UHGV virus genome: UHGV-0135234 | Reading direction: 5' to 3' (one strand) | From: a virus | DNA length: 36,533 nucleotides | Shown: positions 3,630 through 34,190 of the stretch, in pieces | How positions within the stretch are numbered: position 1 is the stretch's first letter | Layout: each line of letters starts with the position of its first letter | Translations under genes and position numbers: made by a program | Notes under the pieces: model-generated | What the model was told of the DNA's origin: nothing | The model's input: the letters and a program-made list of their open reading frames with translations, nothing else | The model's database searches: none

Positions 3630-3644
3630 TTACCGTTGAGGTAA
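3630..3644. promoter_or_regulatory. operator palindrome TTACC-N5-GGTAA (OL-proximal)
   Basis: ttaccgttgaggtaa; overlaps predicted -10/+1 of leftward promoter. Confidence 0.6.
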
Positions 3645-3691: not shown

Positions 3692-3706
3692 TTACCCGTT
3701 AGGTAA
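3692..3706. promoter_or_regulatory. operator palindrome TTACC-N5-GGTAA (OL-distal)
   Basis: ttacccgttaggtaa, perfect inverted repeat. Confidence 0.6.
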
Positions 3707-3763: not shown

Positions 3764-4348
3764 TTATTGTTTATTTTTTTCGTTCTGGTTGATGACAAAT
3801 TCAATGTAACTTTCGATCTTTGCCTTCTCTGTTTCAGGTAACAATGCGTAGCGCGAGCGGTCATAGTTGATAGTCGCGGGGTCGTGCGGGTGAATCAGTA
3901 ATTCATATCCGTGACGCCCAAATGCGGATGCAACATTCTCCAGGGTGGAAATGGAAACGCTGACCTCATTGTTTAACAGGCGGCTGATTGTTACCTGGGC
4001 GACGCCGGATGCGCGGTGAAGTTTTCCCTGCGTTGAAAGGTCGCGGCTTTCGCTCATCCAGCGTTCCAGGTTGTGAGCCGCCAGTTGACCAATGTCGCTT
4101 GGTCCGACAGGCTGAAAACCTTCCTGAGAAAGCGAGCGATCGATATCAAGCCAGTTACGGGGTTTATTGGCGGCAGCTTCAATTTTTCGCGCAACCTGGT
4201 CGCCGATAACCTTCTTGCCAAGAGCCCAGCGGTTTACCAGATTTGCCTGAGTTCCAAGTTTTTCAGCCATCCGCGTCTGAACACCATTGAATTCACGGTC
4301 GATCAAGTCGTTGAGATTTTGCCTGCGGACGTCCTGGATACTTTTCAT
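3764..4348 (-). CDS. phage immunity repressor (CI-like, two HTH domains, no S24 peptidase domain)
   Basis: 194 aa; N-terminal HTH (QTRMAEKLGTQANLVNRWALGKK) and second HTH (RASGVAQVTISRLLNNEVSVSISTLENVA); no LexA-like autocleavage domain; divergent from Cro-like gene with operators between. Confidence 0.75.
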   Translation of the reverse strand: MKSIQDVRRQNLNDLIDREFNGVQTRMAEKLGTQANLVNRWALGKKVIGDQVARKIEAAANKPRNWLDIDRSLSQEGFQPVGPSDIGQLAAHNLERWMSESRDLSTQGKLHRASGVAQVTISRLLNNEVSVSISTLENVASAFGRHGYELLIHPHDPATINYDRSRYALLPETEKAKIESYIEFVINQNEKNKQ

Positions 4349-4403: not shown

Positions 4404-4418
4404 TTACCCAACAGGTAA
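4404..4418. promoter_or_regulatory. operator palindrome TTACC-N5-GGTAA (OR region)
   Basis: ttacccaacaggtaa in divergent repressor/cro intergenic region. Confidence 0.6.
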
Positions 4419-4451: not shown

Positions 4452-4466
4452 TTACCTTATAGGTGA
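4452..4466. promoter_or_regulatory. operator palindrome, imperfect (TTACC-N5-GGTGA) (OR region)
   Basis: ttaccttataggtga; lies in spacer of putative pR (-35 TTGATT 4442..4447). Confidence 0.45.
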
Positions 4467-6734: not shown

Positions 6735-6749
6735 TTACCTGTTAGGTAA
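6735..6749. promoter_or_regulatory. operator palindrome TTACC-N5-GGTAA
   Basis: ttacctgttaggtaa upstream of internal promoter. Confidence 0.55.
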
Positions 6750-6768: not shown

Positions 6769-6797
6769 TTGATTTCGTGTCTTATGTGGTTTTTAAT
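6769..6797 (+). promoter_or_regulatory. putative internal promoter for nin-like operon
   Basis: -35 TTGATT (6769..6774), 17-bp spacer, -10 TTTAAT (6792..6797), directly followed by operator. Confidence 0.4.
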
Positions 6798-6811
6798 TAC
6801 CTCAGAGGTAA
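6797..6811. promoter_or_regulatory. operator palindrome TTACC-N5-GGTAA overlapping SD of downstream gene
   Basis: ttacctcagaggtaa; ends 4 nt before ATG 6815. Confidence 0.55.
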
Positions 6812-9845: not shown

Positions 9846-9860
9846 TTACCACAACGGTAA
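9846..9860. promoter_or_regulatory. operator palindrome TTACC-N5-GGTAA upstream of terS
   Basis: ttaccacaacggtaa; preceded by TACTAT -10-like hexamer; direct repeat CTATTACCAC at 9843 and 9861. Confidence 0.55.
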
Positions 9861-9877
9861 CTATTACCACGGTGGTT

Positions 9878-10474
9878 ATGATGCCTGCTGAACCTAAAAC
9901 CTATAAACGCAAATCAACGCAATTTAAGCCGCTCACAGCAATGCAGGAGGCTTATTGCCAGTCATACATCAAAACGCCTGAAAACCAGACTCAGGCAGCG
10001 ATTAACGCAGGATTCTCCCCAAATACAGCGGCAGTTAAAGCCAGTGTCATGATGCGCGATGAACGCATTCAAAAACGGATTGCCGAGTTGATGGAGGAGC
10101 GCAACAAACGAATGCGCGTCAGTGCTGATTACGTTCTCATGCGCCTGGTGGAGATCGACCAGATGGACGTGATCGACATCCTCAACGACGATGGTAGCCT
10201 TAAGCCAATCCGCGAGTGGCCGAAAATCTGGCGCACTACGCTTAGTGGCTTTGATCTGTCATCGACCATCATGAACATGAACGAGGATTCGATAGAGACA
10301 ATCCTCAAAAAAATTAAATGGCCTGACAAGGTGAAGAACCTCGAACTGATTGGTAAGCACGTCGACGTCAACGCATTCAAAGAACGCCTGGATGTTAATG
10401 TGAATGTGACAATTGCTGATCGCATAGCGGCAGCCAGGAAGAGACTGAAAGAACGTCAGGATGGCAATCAGTGA
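9878..10474 (+). CDS. terminase small subunit
   Basis: ORF 9800..10474; ATG at 9878 or 9881 (upstream part contains the terminator); pattern resembles small-terminase family (QEAYCQSYIKTPENQTQAAINAGFSPNTAAVKASVMMRDERIQKRI). Confidence 0.75.
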   Translation: MMPAEPKTYKRKSTQFKPLTAMQEAYCQSYIKTPENQTQAAINAGFSPNTAAVKASVMMRDERIQKRIAELMEERNKRMRVSADYVLMRLVEIDQMDVIDILNDDGSLKPIREWPKIWRTTLSGFDLSSTIMNMNEDSIETILKKIKWPDKVKNLELIGKHVDVNAFKERLDVNVNVTIADRIAAARKRLKERQDGNQ

Positions 10475-12615: not shown

Positions 12616-12692
12616 TGGCGTGGCATGCAGGATTCGAACCTGCGACCAACCGCTTAGAAGGCGGTTGCTCTGTCCAACTGAGCTAATGCCAC
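12616..12692 (-). tRNA. tRNA-Arg (anticodon UCU)
   Basis: 77 nt GTGGCATTAGCTCAGTTGGACAGAGCAACCGCCTTCTAAGCGGTTGGTCGCAGGTTCGAATCCTGCATGCCACGCCA; 7-bp acceptor stem, D-arm GCTC/GAGC, anticodon loop CTTCTAA, T-loop TTCGAAT, encoded CCA. Confidence 0.9.
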
Positions 12693-13021: not shown

Positions 13022-13036
13022 TTACCTGAAAGGTAA
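13022..13036. promoter_or_regulatory. operator palindrome TTACC-N5-GGTAA upstream of head operon
   Basis: ttacctgaaaggtaa. Confidence 0.55.
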
Positions 13037-29800: not shown

Positions 29801-29821
29801 AAAAAAGCCCGCAGCGCGGGC
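29801..29821 (-). terminator. rho-independent terminator after cargo gene B
   Basis: Minus strand gcccgc-gct-gcgggc followed by TTTTTT. Confidence 0.6.
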
Positions 29822-30261
29822 TATTCTTCTTCATCATTAAAAAGCGGATTGTTGTTTCCATCTGATGAAAGGAAAGGTATGTGTTCTCTTGAAAATCCAA
29901 CAATGACAATTTCATTATCATTTTTTGCATAATGAATGCATTCATTAGAATGCCTTCCGCCAGGGTTGAAATTTAAGTTAATGGTATAATTCTTAAATGT
30001 GTTTGGATACCATGTTGGCCCACAATGATAATGCCAATAATTCTCTTGCTCATAATTGTCTGAGCCGGGAATTTTATCATGGTTATCATCAACCCACGAG
30101 GGCTTGTTTTTTCCAACAAGCGCCCTTCCATTGGCAACATCCTCTAAAAAACTTTGTATGATTTTTATTTCATCATCAGTAAGGAAAGGTCCGTCTACAG
30201 CGAAAGGGGTGTTGCTTTCCCCATGTAGAAAACTATTAGATATTCTAATGTTAAACTTCAA
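29821..30261 (-). CDS. AT-rich cargo protein of unknown function (gene B)
   Basis: ORF 29821..30402 has no internal Met; CAGGAG SD + 6 nt + TTG at 30261 gives 146 aa (MKFNIRISNSFLHGESNTPFAVDGPFLTDDEIKIIQ...NYWHYHCGPTWYP...FNDEEE); upstream 47 codons of the long ORF use rare codons and overlap gene A. Start uncertain. Confidence 0.4.
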   Translation of the reverse strand: MKFNIRISNSFLHGESNTPFAVDGPFLTDDEIKIIQSFLEDVANGRALVGKNKPSWVDDNHDKIPGSDNYEQENYWHYHCGPTWYPNTFKNYTINLNFNPGGRHSNECIHYAKNDNEIVIVGFSREHIPFLSSDGNNNPLFNDEEE

Positions 30262-30281
30262 GGAAAACTCCTGATGTGCTT

Positions 30282-30449
30282 CTATTTGGAGCGAAATGCC
30301 GCCTTGAAGTCGCTGAAAGATGTTCCTGTCTGGTAAACCATATCCTTGTCGCGCTCTTTGCTTGCGCGGCCAAGCATAACTTTTCCAATGACATCCCAGC
30401 ATTGCTTGGCTTGTTCATTGTGCTGAGTACGATTTTTCAACGCTGTCAT
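30282..30449 (-). CDS. small protein (gene A), first gene of operator-controlled cargo operon
   Basis: 55 aa MTALKNRTQHNEQAKQCWDVIGKVMLGRASKERDKDMVYQTGTSFSDFKAAFRSK; AGGAGG SD 6 nt before ATG; host-like codon usage; not in ORF track (<60 aa). Confidence 0.4.
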   Translation of the reverse strand: MTALKNRTQHNEQAKQCWDVIGKVMLGRASKERDKDMVYQTGTSFSDFKAAFRSK

Positions 30450-30461
30450 ATCGCGCCTCCT

Positions 30462-30476
30462 TTACCTTTAAGGTAA
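30462..30476. promoter_or_regulatory. operator palindrome TTACC-N5-GGTAA between promoter and gene A
   Basis: ttacctttaaggtaa immediately upstream of SD. Confidence 0.55.
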
Positions 30477-30504
30477 TAGTACGCTATTCACCCACAGTCT
30501 GCAA
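30476..30504 (-). promoter_or_regulatory. putative promoter of cargo operon
   Basis: Minus strand -35 TTGCAG (30499..30504), 17 bp, -10 TACTAT (30476..30481), then operator. Confidence 0.45.
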
Positions 30505-30513
30505 TCTGTACAG

Positions 30514-30540
30514 AATTATTTAAAGGCACATCCCTGTGCC
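30514..30540 (-). terminator. terminator-like hairpin after Bro-N gene
   Basis: Minus strand ggcaca-ggga-tgtgcc followed by TTTAAATAATT. Confidence 0.4.
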
Positions 30541-30548
30541 GCCGCCCG

Positions 30549-31235
30549 TCAGAAGAACCCAGCCTTGTCGTTGATGTACTCCGCGTGGGTCTGGATATCA
30601 CGCAGGCATTTGCTCACACCAACAATGTAGCAGAACATGGTGGTCAGCTCCGCCGCCGCGCCCGATACGTCGTGCCCGTCTTCCTGTAACTGGTTCAGCA
30701 GATTCATCAGCAGTGAGTTCTCCGTCAGGCCGAGAACACCAGACGGAGAATGAATCAGGCTGCGGTAGCCGGGCTTCAGTGGGGCACTGTAGGTTTTGTT
30801 CTCTATCTTCATTGCCTGCATCACTGCTGATGCTGTGGCGTTGGCTACCTGGTCGGCAACTATCTTTATGCGTTCTTCCTGCGGGAGCGAGTTTTTAATG
30901 TAACTTCCGGTGCGGCGGATCTGAGGAAGAACCTCACCTGTAACCCATTTACGAAAGCGGTAGGGGATAGTGCCTGGTGTCACTGCGTCGCGGCAGCGGA
31001 GGATCAGTGTGTAGAGGCCTGACTCGTTGATAATATTGGTTTCACCTTGACGGCCTAAGTTAAATTTAGCCCTTTCATCATCATCAAGAGATTTTATTGA
31101 CATAGTGGGGTTTGTCAGTTGAAGAGCTTTAATAACGTCTTTGGCAACAAACCAAGGATTTCCATCAATAACAATGGCTCGAATGGTGGCTTCTGATTCA
31201 AAATGAAAAACAGATGGGGTTACGTTAGCAGTCAT
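30549..31235 (-). CDS. Bro-N domain antirepressor-like protein
   Basis: ORF 30549..31388; ATG at 31235 (MTANVTPSVFHFESEATIRAIVIDGNPWFVAKDVIKALQL... classic Bro-N N-terminus); AAGGTGA SD; upstream extension is a structured leader. Confidence 0.8.
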   Translation of the reverse strand: MTANVTPSVFHFESEATIRAIVIDGNPWFVAKDVIKALQLTNPTMSIKSLDDDERAKFNLGRQGETNIINESGLYTLILRCRDAVTPGTIPYRFRKWVTGEVLPQIRRTGSYIKNSLPQEERIKIVADQVANATASAVMQAMKIENKTYSAPLKPGYRSLIHSPSGVLGLTENSLLMNLLNQLQEDGHDVSGAAAELTTMFCYIVGVSKCLRDIQTHAEYINDKAGFF

Positions 31236-31388
31236 AGTGATCACCTTTGTAGTTAGGTTAATCACCACTACCGACGCCAATCGGTTGGTGGTGAACTGTG
31301 CAGGGTTGGCGTAACCGGCTACAAAGGACCCGGCGCACCTTTCGGTGCCCCCACACAGCCCACCATAGAATAGGTGCGCTTTACACAT

Positions 31389-31408
31389 AAAAAAACCGCT
31401 TATGCGGC
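31389..31408 (-). terminator. intrinsic terminator/attenuator in Bro leader
   Basis: Minus strand gccgc-ataa-gcggu followed by seven U. Confidence 0.45.
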
Positions 31409-31501
31409 ATATGTGCCTCTGTAGTAACCCGGGACGCCAATCCCGGCACTGGATTTTGCCAGTGCCCGATTACTATGGCACAAGAGGAGTGCGATGTAAA
31501 T

Positions 31502-31516
31502 TTACCGAAAAGGTAA
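31502..31516. promoter_or_regulatory. operator palindrome TTACC-N5-GGTAA
   Basis: ttaccgaaaaggtaa directly downstream of putative Bro promoter. Confidence 0.55.
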
Positions 31517-31544
31517 TAATAAACACTCTACTTGGTAATTGCAA
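31516..31544 (-). promoter_or_regulatory. putative promoter for Bro-N gene
   Basis: Minus strand -35 TTGCAA (31539..31544), 17 bp, -10 TATTAT (31516..31521); same architecture as gene A promoter. Confidence 0.4.
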
Positions 31545-31547
31545 ACC

Positions 31548-31805
31548 TTATCTGGTTTGTTTTCGTAATTGTTCGGCACAATAGTCGAGATGTGTTTGCA
31601 GATCCCGCATAGACATCTGTGAGCTGGTGACGTAGTTAATCAGTGCAGTCAGTTCGGCAAGTGGGCCATCGACATTAAATCCATCCTTATCGAGATCCCG
31701 GAGTAATTTCATCAAGTGCGATCCCTCCACCAGTGACCTGACGCCTCCCGGCGTGTGAATCCTTTCGGTAAATCCGTCTTCCAGTGGATAGTGATACTGC
31801 TGCAT
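31548..31805 (-). CDS. small antirepressor-domain protein, paralog of Bro C-terminal domain; LexA-box controlled
   Basis: ORF 31548..31823 (TTG); ATG at 31805 gives 85 aa with GGAG SD; aligns with C-terminus of 30549..31235 protein (IH(S/T)P.GV..L.E.S.LM.LL..L..DG..V.G..AELT...RD.QTH..Y). Confidence 0.55.
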   Translation of the reverse strand: MQQYHYPLEDGFTERIHTPGGVRSLVEGSHLMKLLRDLDKDGFNVDGPLAELTALINYVTSSQMSMRDLQTHLDYCAEQLRKQTR

Positions 31806-31826
31806 CTTATCTTCTCCATGCAATAA

Positions 31827-31842
31827 CTGTATATTTATACAG
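31827..31842. promoter_or_regulatory. LexA box (SOS operator) CTGTATATTTATACAG
   Basis: Perfect CTGT-N8-ACAG with AT-rich spacer; 10 nt upstream of SD of the 85-aa gene. Confidence 0.75.
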
Positions 31843-31881
31843 TATCAAATAATTTGTTTGCTATCCAGCACGTTTTGCAAA

Positions 31882-31896
31882 TTACCCGAAAGGTAA
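31882..31896. promoter_or_regulatory. operator palindrome TTACC-N5-GGTAA
   Basis: ttacccgaaaggtaa between 85-aa gene and divergent tailspike. Confidence 0.55.
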
Positions 31897-32000
31897 TATC
31901 TATTCGTATTTACAGTCTTTCTATCCATATGTGGTTTTTCAGGTAATAGAATAACCAGATATGCGGCGCAACGGGTGCTGCGACTATCTGGAGATTTAAC

Positions 32001-34190
32001 ATGACGGTCTCAACCGAAGTTGACCACAACGAATACACCGGTAACGGCGTTACGACATCATTTCCGTATACCTTCCGTATTTTCAAAAAAACCGACCTGG
32101 TTGTTCAGGTGTCTGACCTGAACGGGAACGTAACAGAATTGGTTCTGGATACCGGTTATAAGGTAACTGGAGCGGGCACTTATAGTGGCGGTGAAGTGGT
32201 TCTCCCGTCGCCGCTTGCTGCTGGCTGGCGAATTACGATAGAGCGTGTGCTTGATGTGGTGCAGGAGACTGATCTTCGCAATCAGGGAAAATTTTTCCCC
32301 GAAGTTCATGAAGATGCATTTGACTACCTGACGATGCTGATCCAGCGATGTTTTGGGTGGTTCAGACGTGCATTGATGAAACCATCTTTGCTTGCAAAAT
32401 ATTACGATGCAAAGCAAAACAAAATTTCTAACCTTGCAGATCCATCATTTGAGCAGGACGCTGTAAATAATCGCTCAATGCGTAATTATGTCGATGCTGC
32501 AATCGCCGGGGTTGTTGGTGGTTTTGGTTGGTTTATACCGTCAGGAAGCGGGGCAAGACAACGAACATTTCAAAGCAAAATGAGGGATATAATTTCTCCT
32601 TGTGATTACGAAGATAATATTTTTATGATTAAGGAGTTGATATCCAAAGGCAAAAATGCCGCTGTTTTTAACTCATATTATACTTTTGTTATTACTGTTG
32701 GCGAATGGGGTGATTTCCCTACACTCAAAGATGCAATCATTGCAGCCCAGTCAATGAGACCTATGTGGGATGGTGGTAATGCTTTCTGCGAAATAAGAAT
32801 TAAGACCGGGCATATTATCAACTATCAAATTGAATTCAGTTCAGGTGTTGATTTGTCTTGGATTAAAATAACATCAGAAGACTCAGTGGTTTTCTCTGAC
32901 ACTCGTTTGTTTACTAAAATCGTTAGAACGTATTACGAATACAAGTATTTATTTTACATTTGCGATGCAGCAAAAAGTCCTGTATTTGCTATTCAGATCG
33001 AAGAAAATAGAGATGATAGCGATGTTTGTGCATTTATTGTAACTCAAAAAGCTGAACTTAATTTCTATCCGTATTCAGGTGCTCGAAAGTTCTACGTTGG
33101 AATTCATGGTAGTTTTGGTGCAAAAATTAGTGCATATCATACCGGATGTGCTCCTGATGAGGAAAGTGTTGCTGCATATATGCCAGAAGGGTATTACGTA
33201 TGTGATTTTTCTTATAGCAGATACTCTTCCCTGCAACTGGTAAATAATGTCAAGGCATCAATGCCTGTAAGCAAGTTTGAACGGTGCACAGAGAGTACGG
33301 TTGCGTCAGTTAATTGTATTTATAATGTTAAAGCAGATTTTCAGGGGTCAAGTGCAAGCTATTGTTATATAGGATGGAATGTAAGAGATGGTTCAAATGT
33401 TAATATACGCGACCATAAAACTATACATTGCTCATATCGTGGATTAACCTGCATTCATACAGCATATGTTGATGCAAGACGACATGACGTTGAAGAAAGT
33501 GATGCAGAAACAAGTGGTAAAGTCCTTGAACCAAATATTGAAAAAGGTTTTTATGGATGTGCACTTGGTGTGCGTATTGATGGTGCGGGTTGCGTTGATG
33601 TTGCTGGTAATGATATGCGCAATTGTGGAACAGCCGTTAATGCAGACACTGGTGCTGTTATTTCAGGAAAGGCTGTAGATATCTCAGGGGCTGAGCTGGG
33701 ATTTGATTGCCATGCAGGAGCATCTGTTAATTTTCCAAGGCTATGGGGTACAGATATAAAAAAATTAATGCACCTCCAAGATGGTGTAAGGTTTAACTCT
33801 AATATTTGTCATGTATTTGGTGCAAATCCCACAAAAGATATTAGATGGATTGATGTAGAGAGATCTGAAGCTTCTTTTATGAATGCAACGCTGGATGCAG
33901 ATTCAGGATTTATTGCCGACTGTGGTAGTAGGATAACCATTGAAGGAAGTAAAGTTAAAAACCAAACAATAAGAAGTTTTTTTGGATCATATGTGGCTAT
34001 AAATAATACTGTTGCTGACAGAACTTATTCAGATATAGCCGATGTTCCGCAGTTGACTATTAGTGGAGGATCTTTTATTTCTGCTACAGGATATTCTAAT
34101 TCTGACTCCAGCCCTCTGAGGTTGAGCACAACACGAAATACACTTGGCGTTGGAGGAGCCATATTTTCAACCAATGGGGAAGTTTCATGA
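32001..34190 (+). CDS. tailspike/tail fiber with T7 gp17-like N-terminal adaptor and AT-rich C-terminal receptor-binding domain
   Basis: 729 aa; N-terminal about 130 aa matches podovirus tail-fibre N-domain pattern; composition becomes AT-rich from about 32450. Confidence 0.8.
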   Translation: MTVSTEVDHNEYTGNGVTTSFPYTFRIFKKTDLVVQVSDLNGNVTELVLDTGYKVTGAGTYSGGEVVLPSPLAAGWRITIERVLDVVQETDLRNQGKFFPEVHEDAFDYLTMLIQRCFGWFRRALMKPSLLAKYYDAKQNKISNLADPSFEQDAVNNRSMRNYVDAAIAGVVGGFGWFIPSGSGARQRTFQSKMRDIISPCDYEDNIFMIKELISKGKNAAVFNSYYTFVITVGEWGDFPTLKDAIIAAQSMRPMWDGGNAFCEIRIKTGHIINYQIEFSSGVDLSWIKITSEDSVVFSDTRLFTKIVRTYYEYKYLFYICDAAKSPVFAIQIEENRDDSDVCAFIVTQKAELNFYPYSGARKFYVGIHGSFGAKISAYHTGCAPDEESVAAYMPEGYYVCDFSYSRYSSLQLVNNVKASMPVSKFERCTESTVASVNCIYNVKADFQGSSASYCYIGWNVRDGSNVNIRDHKTIHCSYRGLTCIHTAYVDARRHDVEESDAETSGKVLEPNIEKGFYGCALGVRIDGAGCVDVAGNDMRNCGTAVNADTGAVISGKAVDISGAELGFDCHAGASVNFPRLWGTDIKKLMHLQDGVRFNSNICHVFGANPTKDIRWIDVERSEASFMNATLDADSGFIADCGSRITIEGSKVKNQTIRSFFGSYVAINNTVADRTYSDIADVPQLTISGGSFISATGYSNSDSSPLRLSTTRNTLGVGGAIFSTNGEVS

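Follow-up and report, generated by a model that had tools for sequence, protein, structure and literature searches.

A module of the antisense RNA C4 and the small RNA IsrK is already known from c4 of the phages P1 and P7, from IsrK of Gifsy-1 and from Rfam families and their clan CL00128, and the order isrK-C4-Bro-N is annotated in APSE phages. The record of P1 lists a C1 operator, two promoters, the sites a1 and b1, the 77-nt c4, then a2 and b2 at the ribosome-binding site of icd, followed by icd and ant1/ant2. C4 of P1 is reportedly processed from a precursor by RNase P into a stable RNA of ~77 nt, a finding ascribed to Hartmann et al. in 1995, and the Schuster laboratory is said to have described for P1 both the processing of C4 and a Rho-dependent polarity, i.e., premature transcription termination downstream. 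The APSE paper mentioned a match to the sequence preceding the BRO-N gene. For the isrK-orf45 (STnc1160)-anrP region of Gifsy-1 in Salmonella a leaky IsrK terminator and a stable processed RNA downstream of it, STnc1160, were described (PMC4825925). There, an excess of short IsrK trans-activates translation of the antirepressor, and this activation was explained by alternative mRNA structures and the upstream ORF (uORF) orf45, not by titration of C4; the published model contains no explicit C4-type pairing (PMC4825925). Binding of Hfq and trans-activation of antirepressor translation by IsrK are known from Salmonella experiments only. The CI RNA of phage P4 was cited as structural homologue in the Gifsy-1 paper (PMC4825925).

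Here, we analyzed the leader of a Bro-N gene in a stretch of 36,533 nucleotides from the virus genome UHGV-0135234, called the window in the following. The window is a phiV10/epsilon15-like (Uetakevirus) prophage of E. coli, and the region under study shares 97% identity with phage Phi05_1387 B and 87-93% with phiV10. Three E. coli chromosomes contain the leader with 100% identity, and among 5426 complete E. coli genomes it was found in 941. The interval 31236-31547 is non-coding and extends from the stop of an upstream minus-strand ORF (31548) to the Bro start codon, with 31236 being the base before the ATG. The Bro-N gene (31235..30549, minus strand, ATG at 31235..31233) is intact and encodes a 228-aa antirepressor-type protein, which matched Pfam Bro-N (5.4e-20) and PHROG 130 “anti-repressor Ant” (1e-55). 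Downstream of it follows a 193-aa ORF (29821-30402, minus strand), for which no Pfam family was matched. Very probably, the leader is an ordinary copy of the phage P1-type module of C4 antisense RNA and IsrK decoy/terminator in front of a Bro-N antirepressor gene, and the antirepressor would stay untranslated in the lysogen.

The region 30000-33000 was searched against Rfam (E<=1), and the whole window was searched as well. C4 antisense RNA (RF01695) was matched in full length (model 1-87 of 87) at 31370..31284 of the minus strand with 79.5 bits at a gathering score of 45. Full-length isrK (RF01394) was found at 31465..31389 of the same strand with 74.7 bits at a gathering score of 50. The family c4-a1b1 (RF03163; 31478..31426, minus strand) reached 44.1 bits, just below its gathering score of 46.7, and isrK over the same bases passes. 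C4 is located upstream of a gene of an antirepressor family (Bro-N/PHROG 130). In the isrK match, an intrinsic terminator follows two 5' hairpins, and a promoter of its own is predicted. Besides C4 and isrK, only a tRNA scored above the gathering score in the whole window; a tRNA-Arg gene (anticodon TCT) is located within the prophage at 12616-12692 on the minus strand. No isrJ was found by the whole-window Rfam search. In Salmonella phage SW-37, the isrK-C4-antirepressor unit is followed downstream by an isrJ sRNA (2017-2091 of locus L009, 101.7 bits), an order also seen in Gifsy-1. A 32-aa ORF with GTG start (31356..31258, minus strand) lies inside C4, matched no Pfam family and was treated as not being a gene.

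In all of 16 further loci, among them those of four Uetakeviruses, APSE-8, several Stx phages and phages of Salmonella, Yersinia and Actinobacillus, isrK and C4 were found in tandem upstream of an Ant/Rha/Bro-type gene. For comparative analyses 18 leaders, including those of P1, APSE, Stx phages and phiV10, were aligned (alignment A1), and base pairs were counted for the Rfam structures of IsrK and C4 plus the a'-a2 pseudoknot. In total, 97.2% of the cells were paired and 24 of 50 pairs had changed on both sides; none of 500 shuffles was as good, and slid controls reached 35-42%. The features exceed chance expectation, as judged from the z-score of the folded leader against shuffles, the compensatory changes in 18 loci, the invariant U-tract of the terminator and the excess of the operator-like palindrome, all given below.

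The 288-nt leader folds with a minimum free energy (MFE) of -121.8 kcal/mol, compared to -91.2 +/- 4.9 kcal/mol for dinucleotide shuffles (z -6.24; equaled by 0 of 200 shuffles). All hairpins listed by the initial annotation, including the one followed by seven U, were found where it had placed them, on the minus strand and hence the strand of Bro-N, and its description of a structured leader was borne out by the folding and by hairpins conserved with compensatory changes in the 18 loci. A reading of these hairpins as a stack of attenuator elements had to be given up: two of them belong to the IsrK/a1b1 element, one lies inside C4 and one presents a2. The hairpin ggcactgg...ccagtgcc (GCACUGG/CCAGUGC; 31465..31446, minus strand, as are all RNA elements of the leader) is the first IsrK hairpin; the second one (31445..31430) carries a1 in its loop. 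In the alignment the IsrK hairpins were paired in 95.6% of the cells and showed covariation. The terminator GCCGC-AUAA-GCGG with U7 (31408..31389), also found by a consensus scan, forms the 3' end of IsrK, and its U-tract is invariant among the 18 leaders. As a terminator-like hairpin it is therefore real and conserved, however, it does not act as the stand-alone attenuator initially considered but ends a short RNA, IsrK, which is a known sRNA.

Folding C4 to its MFE (-45.2 kcal/mol, z -3.6) reproduces the Rfam structure. Judged by alignment to the 77-nt C4 of P1, the mature RNA would extend from ~31364 to ~31287 (~78 nt, minus strand). A long closing stem of 17 bp, 99.7% paired with 8 covarying pairs, surrounds two hairpins; pairing in helices 4-6 of C4 amounted to 96.6-100%, and in 13 pairs both partners had changed. 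The GNRA hairpin gcacc-GAAA-ggtgc (31348..31335) is one of the elements inside C4. The hairpin caccac...gtggtg (31293..31263), with a2 in its loop, was paired in 94.4% of the cells and 5 of its 10 pairs covary. Its 5' arm is at the same time the 3' arm of the C4 closing stem. Because of this common arm the hairpin and the C4 fold are mutually exclusive, the hairpin being an alternative in the unprocessed precursor. For the C4 3' arm UCACCACC there are two possible partners, the C4 5' arm (GGUGGG..., 31353-31364) and GGUGGUG further downstream (within 31263-31293). At position 192 of alignment A1, covariation with both of them was observed, which suggests that the precursor may alternate between the C4 fold and the hairpin presenting a2.

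Two further helices were considered. A helix bridging the terminator (GCACAUA at 31416..31410 with UAUGUGU at 31389..31383) is predicted in the window and would form in read-through transcripts only. The complementarity was seen by eye in most relatives, with the register shifting between the sequences; counted column by column, 68% of the cells were paired and 17 of 500 shuffles were as good, a count affected by these register shifts. For most relatives, a hairpin sequestering the Shine-Dalgarno sequence was predicted as well, in which GGUGGUGA would pair with the bases preceding the AUG and b2 would form part of the loop. It was paired in 81% of the cells, controls slid by +/-3 reached 66-71%, and its comparative support is only modest.

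The recognition elements a and b were assigned by aligning C4 of the window to the annotated P1 record. C4 carries b' (CCUUUGUAG, 31327..31319) in a hairpin loop and a' (ACGCCAA, 31312..31306) in a single-stranded junction. Both find their complements on the same strand downstream, with a2 (UUGGCGU, 31280..31274) in the loop of the caccac...gtggtg hairpin and b2 (CUACAAAGG, 31252..31244), which forms 9 perfect base pairs with the b' loop. A second set of targets is located upstream of C4, namely a1 (UUGGCGU, 31440..31434) in the loop of the second IsrK hairpin and b1 (CUACAGAGG, 31424..31416), which forms 9 base pairs with b' including one G-U. The complementarities a'-a1 and a'-a2 are perfect over 7 bp. 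The site b2 lies at the ribosome-binding site, overlapping the Shine-Dalgarno sequence AAGGUGA (31247..31241) ahead of the Bro ATG.

These complementarities are maintained while the sequences themselves change. In the 18 loci a'-a2 was paired in 98.3% and a1-a' in 96% of the cells, in both cases with 4 of 7 positions covarying. Six distinct a' heptamers were found, each matching its own a1 and a2, and at least 10 distinct b' loops, each matching its own b1 and b2. The b' loops pair with their own b2 at -11.6 kcal/mol and with their own b1 at -10.7 kcal/mol, compared to -5.9 and -3.6 kcal/mol for foreign loops, and none of 20000 permutations was as good. In 17 of the 18 loci b2 overlaps the AUG or precedes it within ~21 nt; for PhiR26_1 the best b2 match is located directly behind the start codon. 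The window and phiV10 differ by a 1-nt deletion common to b', b1 and b2. The window has the same a as phiV10 and the same b as Tyrion; from their sequences, the specificity elements a and b look as if they were exchanged independently. The pattern of shared a and b elements predicts which phages would be immune to which.

The initial annotation had placed promoter and operator about 270 nt upstream of the Bro start. Both are present in the sequence, however, a second and better-placed predicted promoter would give a leader of ~230 nt. The upstream promoter, TTGCAA-17-TATTAT (31544..31516, minus strand), is a sigma-70-like site predicted by consensus scan; both hexamers are conserved in phiV10, ZX5, phiv142-3 and Tyrion, and by analogy it is a possible counterpart of P2c4/P51a of P1. 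The downstream promoter, TTTACA-17-CATAGT with an extended -10 region (TGcCATAGT; 31500..31472, minus strand), was predicted by the same scan and is invariant in 5 Uetakevirus relatives. Its predicted start at ~31465 coincides with position 1 of the isrK model. Between the upstream -10 and the downstream -35 region, ~270 nt upstream of the ATG, lies the operator-like palindrome TTACCGAAAAGGTAA (31502..31516). In 5 relatives, including phiV10, ZX5, phiv142-3 and the 78%-identical Tyrion, its half-sites are conserved and its spacer varies. In P1, the C1 repressor controls the upstream c4 promoter, and an operator between tandem predicted promoters parallels this arrangement.

In the window, 12 copies of the palindrome TTACC-N5-GGTAA were found (10 of them perfect), compared to 0.67 copies expected. 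The copies are located at 3630-3644, 3692-3706, 4404-4418, 4452-4466, 6735-6749, 6797-6811, 9846-9860, 9864-9878, 13022-13036, 30462-30476, 31502-31516 and 31882-31896. They frequently occur as pairs and flank a gene (3767-4348) for a repressor-like HTH_3 protein of 194 aa, in which no S24 peptidase domain was detected. By sequence, the arrangement resembles that of a repressor with numerous dispersed operators, as known for C1 of P1. The copy at 30462-30476 sits between the Bro stop codon and the 193-aa ORF.

Based on the P1 system the following course of events is proposed. Transcription would start at one or both of the two tandem promoters around the repressor operator. The first 77 nt would constitute IsrK, carrying a1 and b1 and ending at the intrinsic terminator, and the fraction of transcripts reading through would contain C4 (~78 nt) with its long closing stem, GNRA hairpin, b' loop and a' junction. 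By analogy with P1, C4 would be cut out of this precursor and accumulate. Its a' and b' would then pair with a2 and b2 in the same mRNA species, and since b2 covers the Shine-Dalgarno sequence, the antirepressor is proposed to remain untranslated. The sites a1/b1, especially those on the short terminated IsrK RNA, would compete for C4, from which we infer a role of IsrK as C4 competitor. As the a and b sequences differ between phages, they would set the specificity of immunity. The polarity step of P1 may not apply in the window, since the target here is the antirepressor gene itself and not an intervening icd.

The surroundings of the module hold a further regulatory element. Immediately upstream of the leader lies an 85-aa ORF (31805..31548, minus strand; PHROG 450), preceded at a distance of 22 nt by the LexA-box-like sequence CTGTATAAATATACAG (31842..31827, minus strand). 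Its product is 41% identical to Bro residues 147-224, i.e., the C-terminal 78 residues (E 2e-16). LexA-like box and ORF are conserved in 5 relatives, including phiV10, ZX5, phiv142-3 and Tyrion, and judged by these sequences the ORF probably encodes a small Gifsy-type antirepressor under SOS control (PMC3121763). A scan for intrinsic terminators between the 85-aa ORF and the leader found none, so that SOS-driven transcripts would read into IsrK-C4-bro, which suggests a link between SOS and the C4 circuit. Taken further, the locus might be an induction switch with two inputs: the HTH_3 repressor would be inactivated either by the LexA-box-controlled 85-aa protein or by the operator- and C4-controlled Bro-N fusion, two proteins with a common C-terminal domain, and SOS read-through could titrate the pool of C4 already present. 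Each SOS transcript would bring a1b1 and a2b2 per C4, plus extra terminated IsrK decoys. We consider this extension rather unlikely. If true, DNA damage would be coupled to the release of a second antirepressor, and the long-unexplained a1/b1 sites as well as the leader terminator would gain a quantitative role as C4 sponge.

Several other explanations for the leader were weighed against the C4/IsrK module. Following the Gifsy-1 model, translation of Bro would require an orf45-like ORF which IsrK would open and whose start is a conserved AUG in the 5' end of C4. Gifsy-1 experiments showed that translation of orf45 is needed for AnrP synthesis (PMC4825925), and the AUG in UAUGGUGGG is conserved in 18 of 18 loci. 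However, with 15 codons the ORF of the window already terminates within the b' loop, leaving 83 nt to the Bro ATG and making translational coupling implausible; among the relatives its length varies from 3 to >166 codons, its frame relative to the gene varies as well, and the sequence is conserved as RNA, with compensatory changes in the stem. Coupling of the orf45 type was rejected for this phage and is, in our view, very improbable.

Plain attenuation, in which a regulated or leaky hairpin-U7 element at 31408..31389 would be the sole limit on Bro transcription, its efficiency merely being modulated by the other hairpins, profits from the presence of a real and conserved terminator, the U-tract of which does not vary, and from the finding that the equivalent terminator of Gifsy-1 is read through by only a fraction of the transcripts (PMC4825925). 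Nevertheless, it leaves unexplained why a full-length C4 homologue follows downstream and why a' and b' covary three ways with sites on either side of the terminator. No riboswitch or other leader family was matched in 30000-33000 (Rfam, E<=1), and the terminator is best seen as part of the module, forming the 3' end of IsrK. There is thus little room for attenuation as sole principle. The post-initiation control postulated by the initial annotation survives in the form of an antisense RNA which would act in addition to the operator controlling an antirepressor-type gene.

Decay is frequent in prophage regions, and the C4/IsrK homologue could be a relic no longer functional in this prophage. 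Against such a decay, all elements are of full length, a'-a1, a'-a2 and b'-b2 are perfect and b'-b1 contains a single G-U, both predicted promoters and the operator are retained, the 228-aa gene is intact, and the leader is identical in the three E. coli chromosomes and common in others; we see barely a chance for it. The suggested analogy to P22 sar, by which a plus-strand small RNA within the leader would pair with the bro mRNA, draws on the P22 immI antirepressor region and on the position of the Bro-N gene next to a tailspike gene, like that of P22 ant, but was rejected as practically negligible, as C4 lies on the same strand inside the leader, the scan of 31236-31547 gave neither a plus-strand promoter-like site nor a terminator, no sar was matched by Rfam (30000-33000, E<=1), and the minus strand accounts for all conserved structure.

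No RNA gene is annotated at the locus in the inspected RefSeq/GenBank records (phiV10, relatives, E. coli prophages); phiV10 has a bare “terminator” only. In ZX5, a GenBank CDS for an “ash family protein” (1400-1513 of locus L003) runs across C4 and is probably spurious; its counterpart in the window is the 32-aa ORF mentioned above. In several records of Stx and Salmonella phages long CDSs (“peptidase”, “transcriptional regulator”) cross isrK and C4. The CDSs over isrK/C4 are likely miscalled ORFs on an RNA gene. The value of these observations for annotation is minor. The P1-type C4/IsrK module probably also guards the antirepressor of Uetakevirus prophages, which leaves the current understanding of the system unchanged; the remaining interest lies in the surroundings, with the scattered TTACC-N5-GGTAA operator and the LexA-box-controlled 85-aa paralogue of the Bro C-terminus.

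Comparing the locus with the described systems, differences and similarities became visible. In sar/ant of P22, an antisense RNA limits antirepressor synthesis and immI lies beside the tailspike gene, however, sar is encoded on the opposite strand, unlike C4 of the window. The CI RNA of P4 (seqA/seqC) is, like C4, a processed RNA from an untranslated leader which pairs with sites upstream and downstream of itself, but the outcome in P4 is premature transcription termination of the replication genes, compared to the occlusion of the antirepressor ribosome-binding site proposed for the window. Gifsy-1 shares with the window a short terminated IsrK and complementarity of IsrK to the downstream RNA, and the read-through into a processed stable RNA and the antirepressor gene is predicted for the window, too; the orf45 frame is not conserved in the window, and the context of isrJ or antQ is missing there. 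The APSE phages of Hamiltonella show the identical order of isrK, C4 and Bro-N gene, and their records annotate isrK, C4 and the a'/b' regions; the leader is ~69% identical, the a and b elements of APSE are UUCGCAU and CUAAACAGG, and phage lineage and host differ. To immI of P1/P7 (c4-icd-ant1/ant2) the window aligns element by element: on one strand, both carry tandem promoters with an operator, a1, b1, a terminator-like hairpin (with U-run between b1 and c4 also in P1), C4, a2, and b2 at a ribosome-binding site. The C4 fold is the same, a comprises 7 nt in both, b comprises 8 nt in P1 and 9 nt in the window, and the sequences are UUGACAG and GUUAGUG in P1 versus UUGGCGU and CUACAAAGG in the window. 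P1 is a plasmid prophage, whereas the window is an integrated Uetakevirus of the podovirus type. The regulated product is an antirepressor in both cases, Ant1/Ant2 in P1 and a Bro-N fusion in the window; in P1, translation of the intervening icd is the direct target, while the window is devoid of icd and b2 lies on the Shine-Dalgarno sequence of the antirepressor gene itself.
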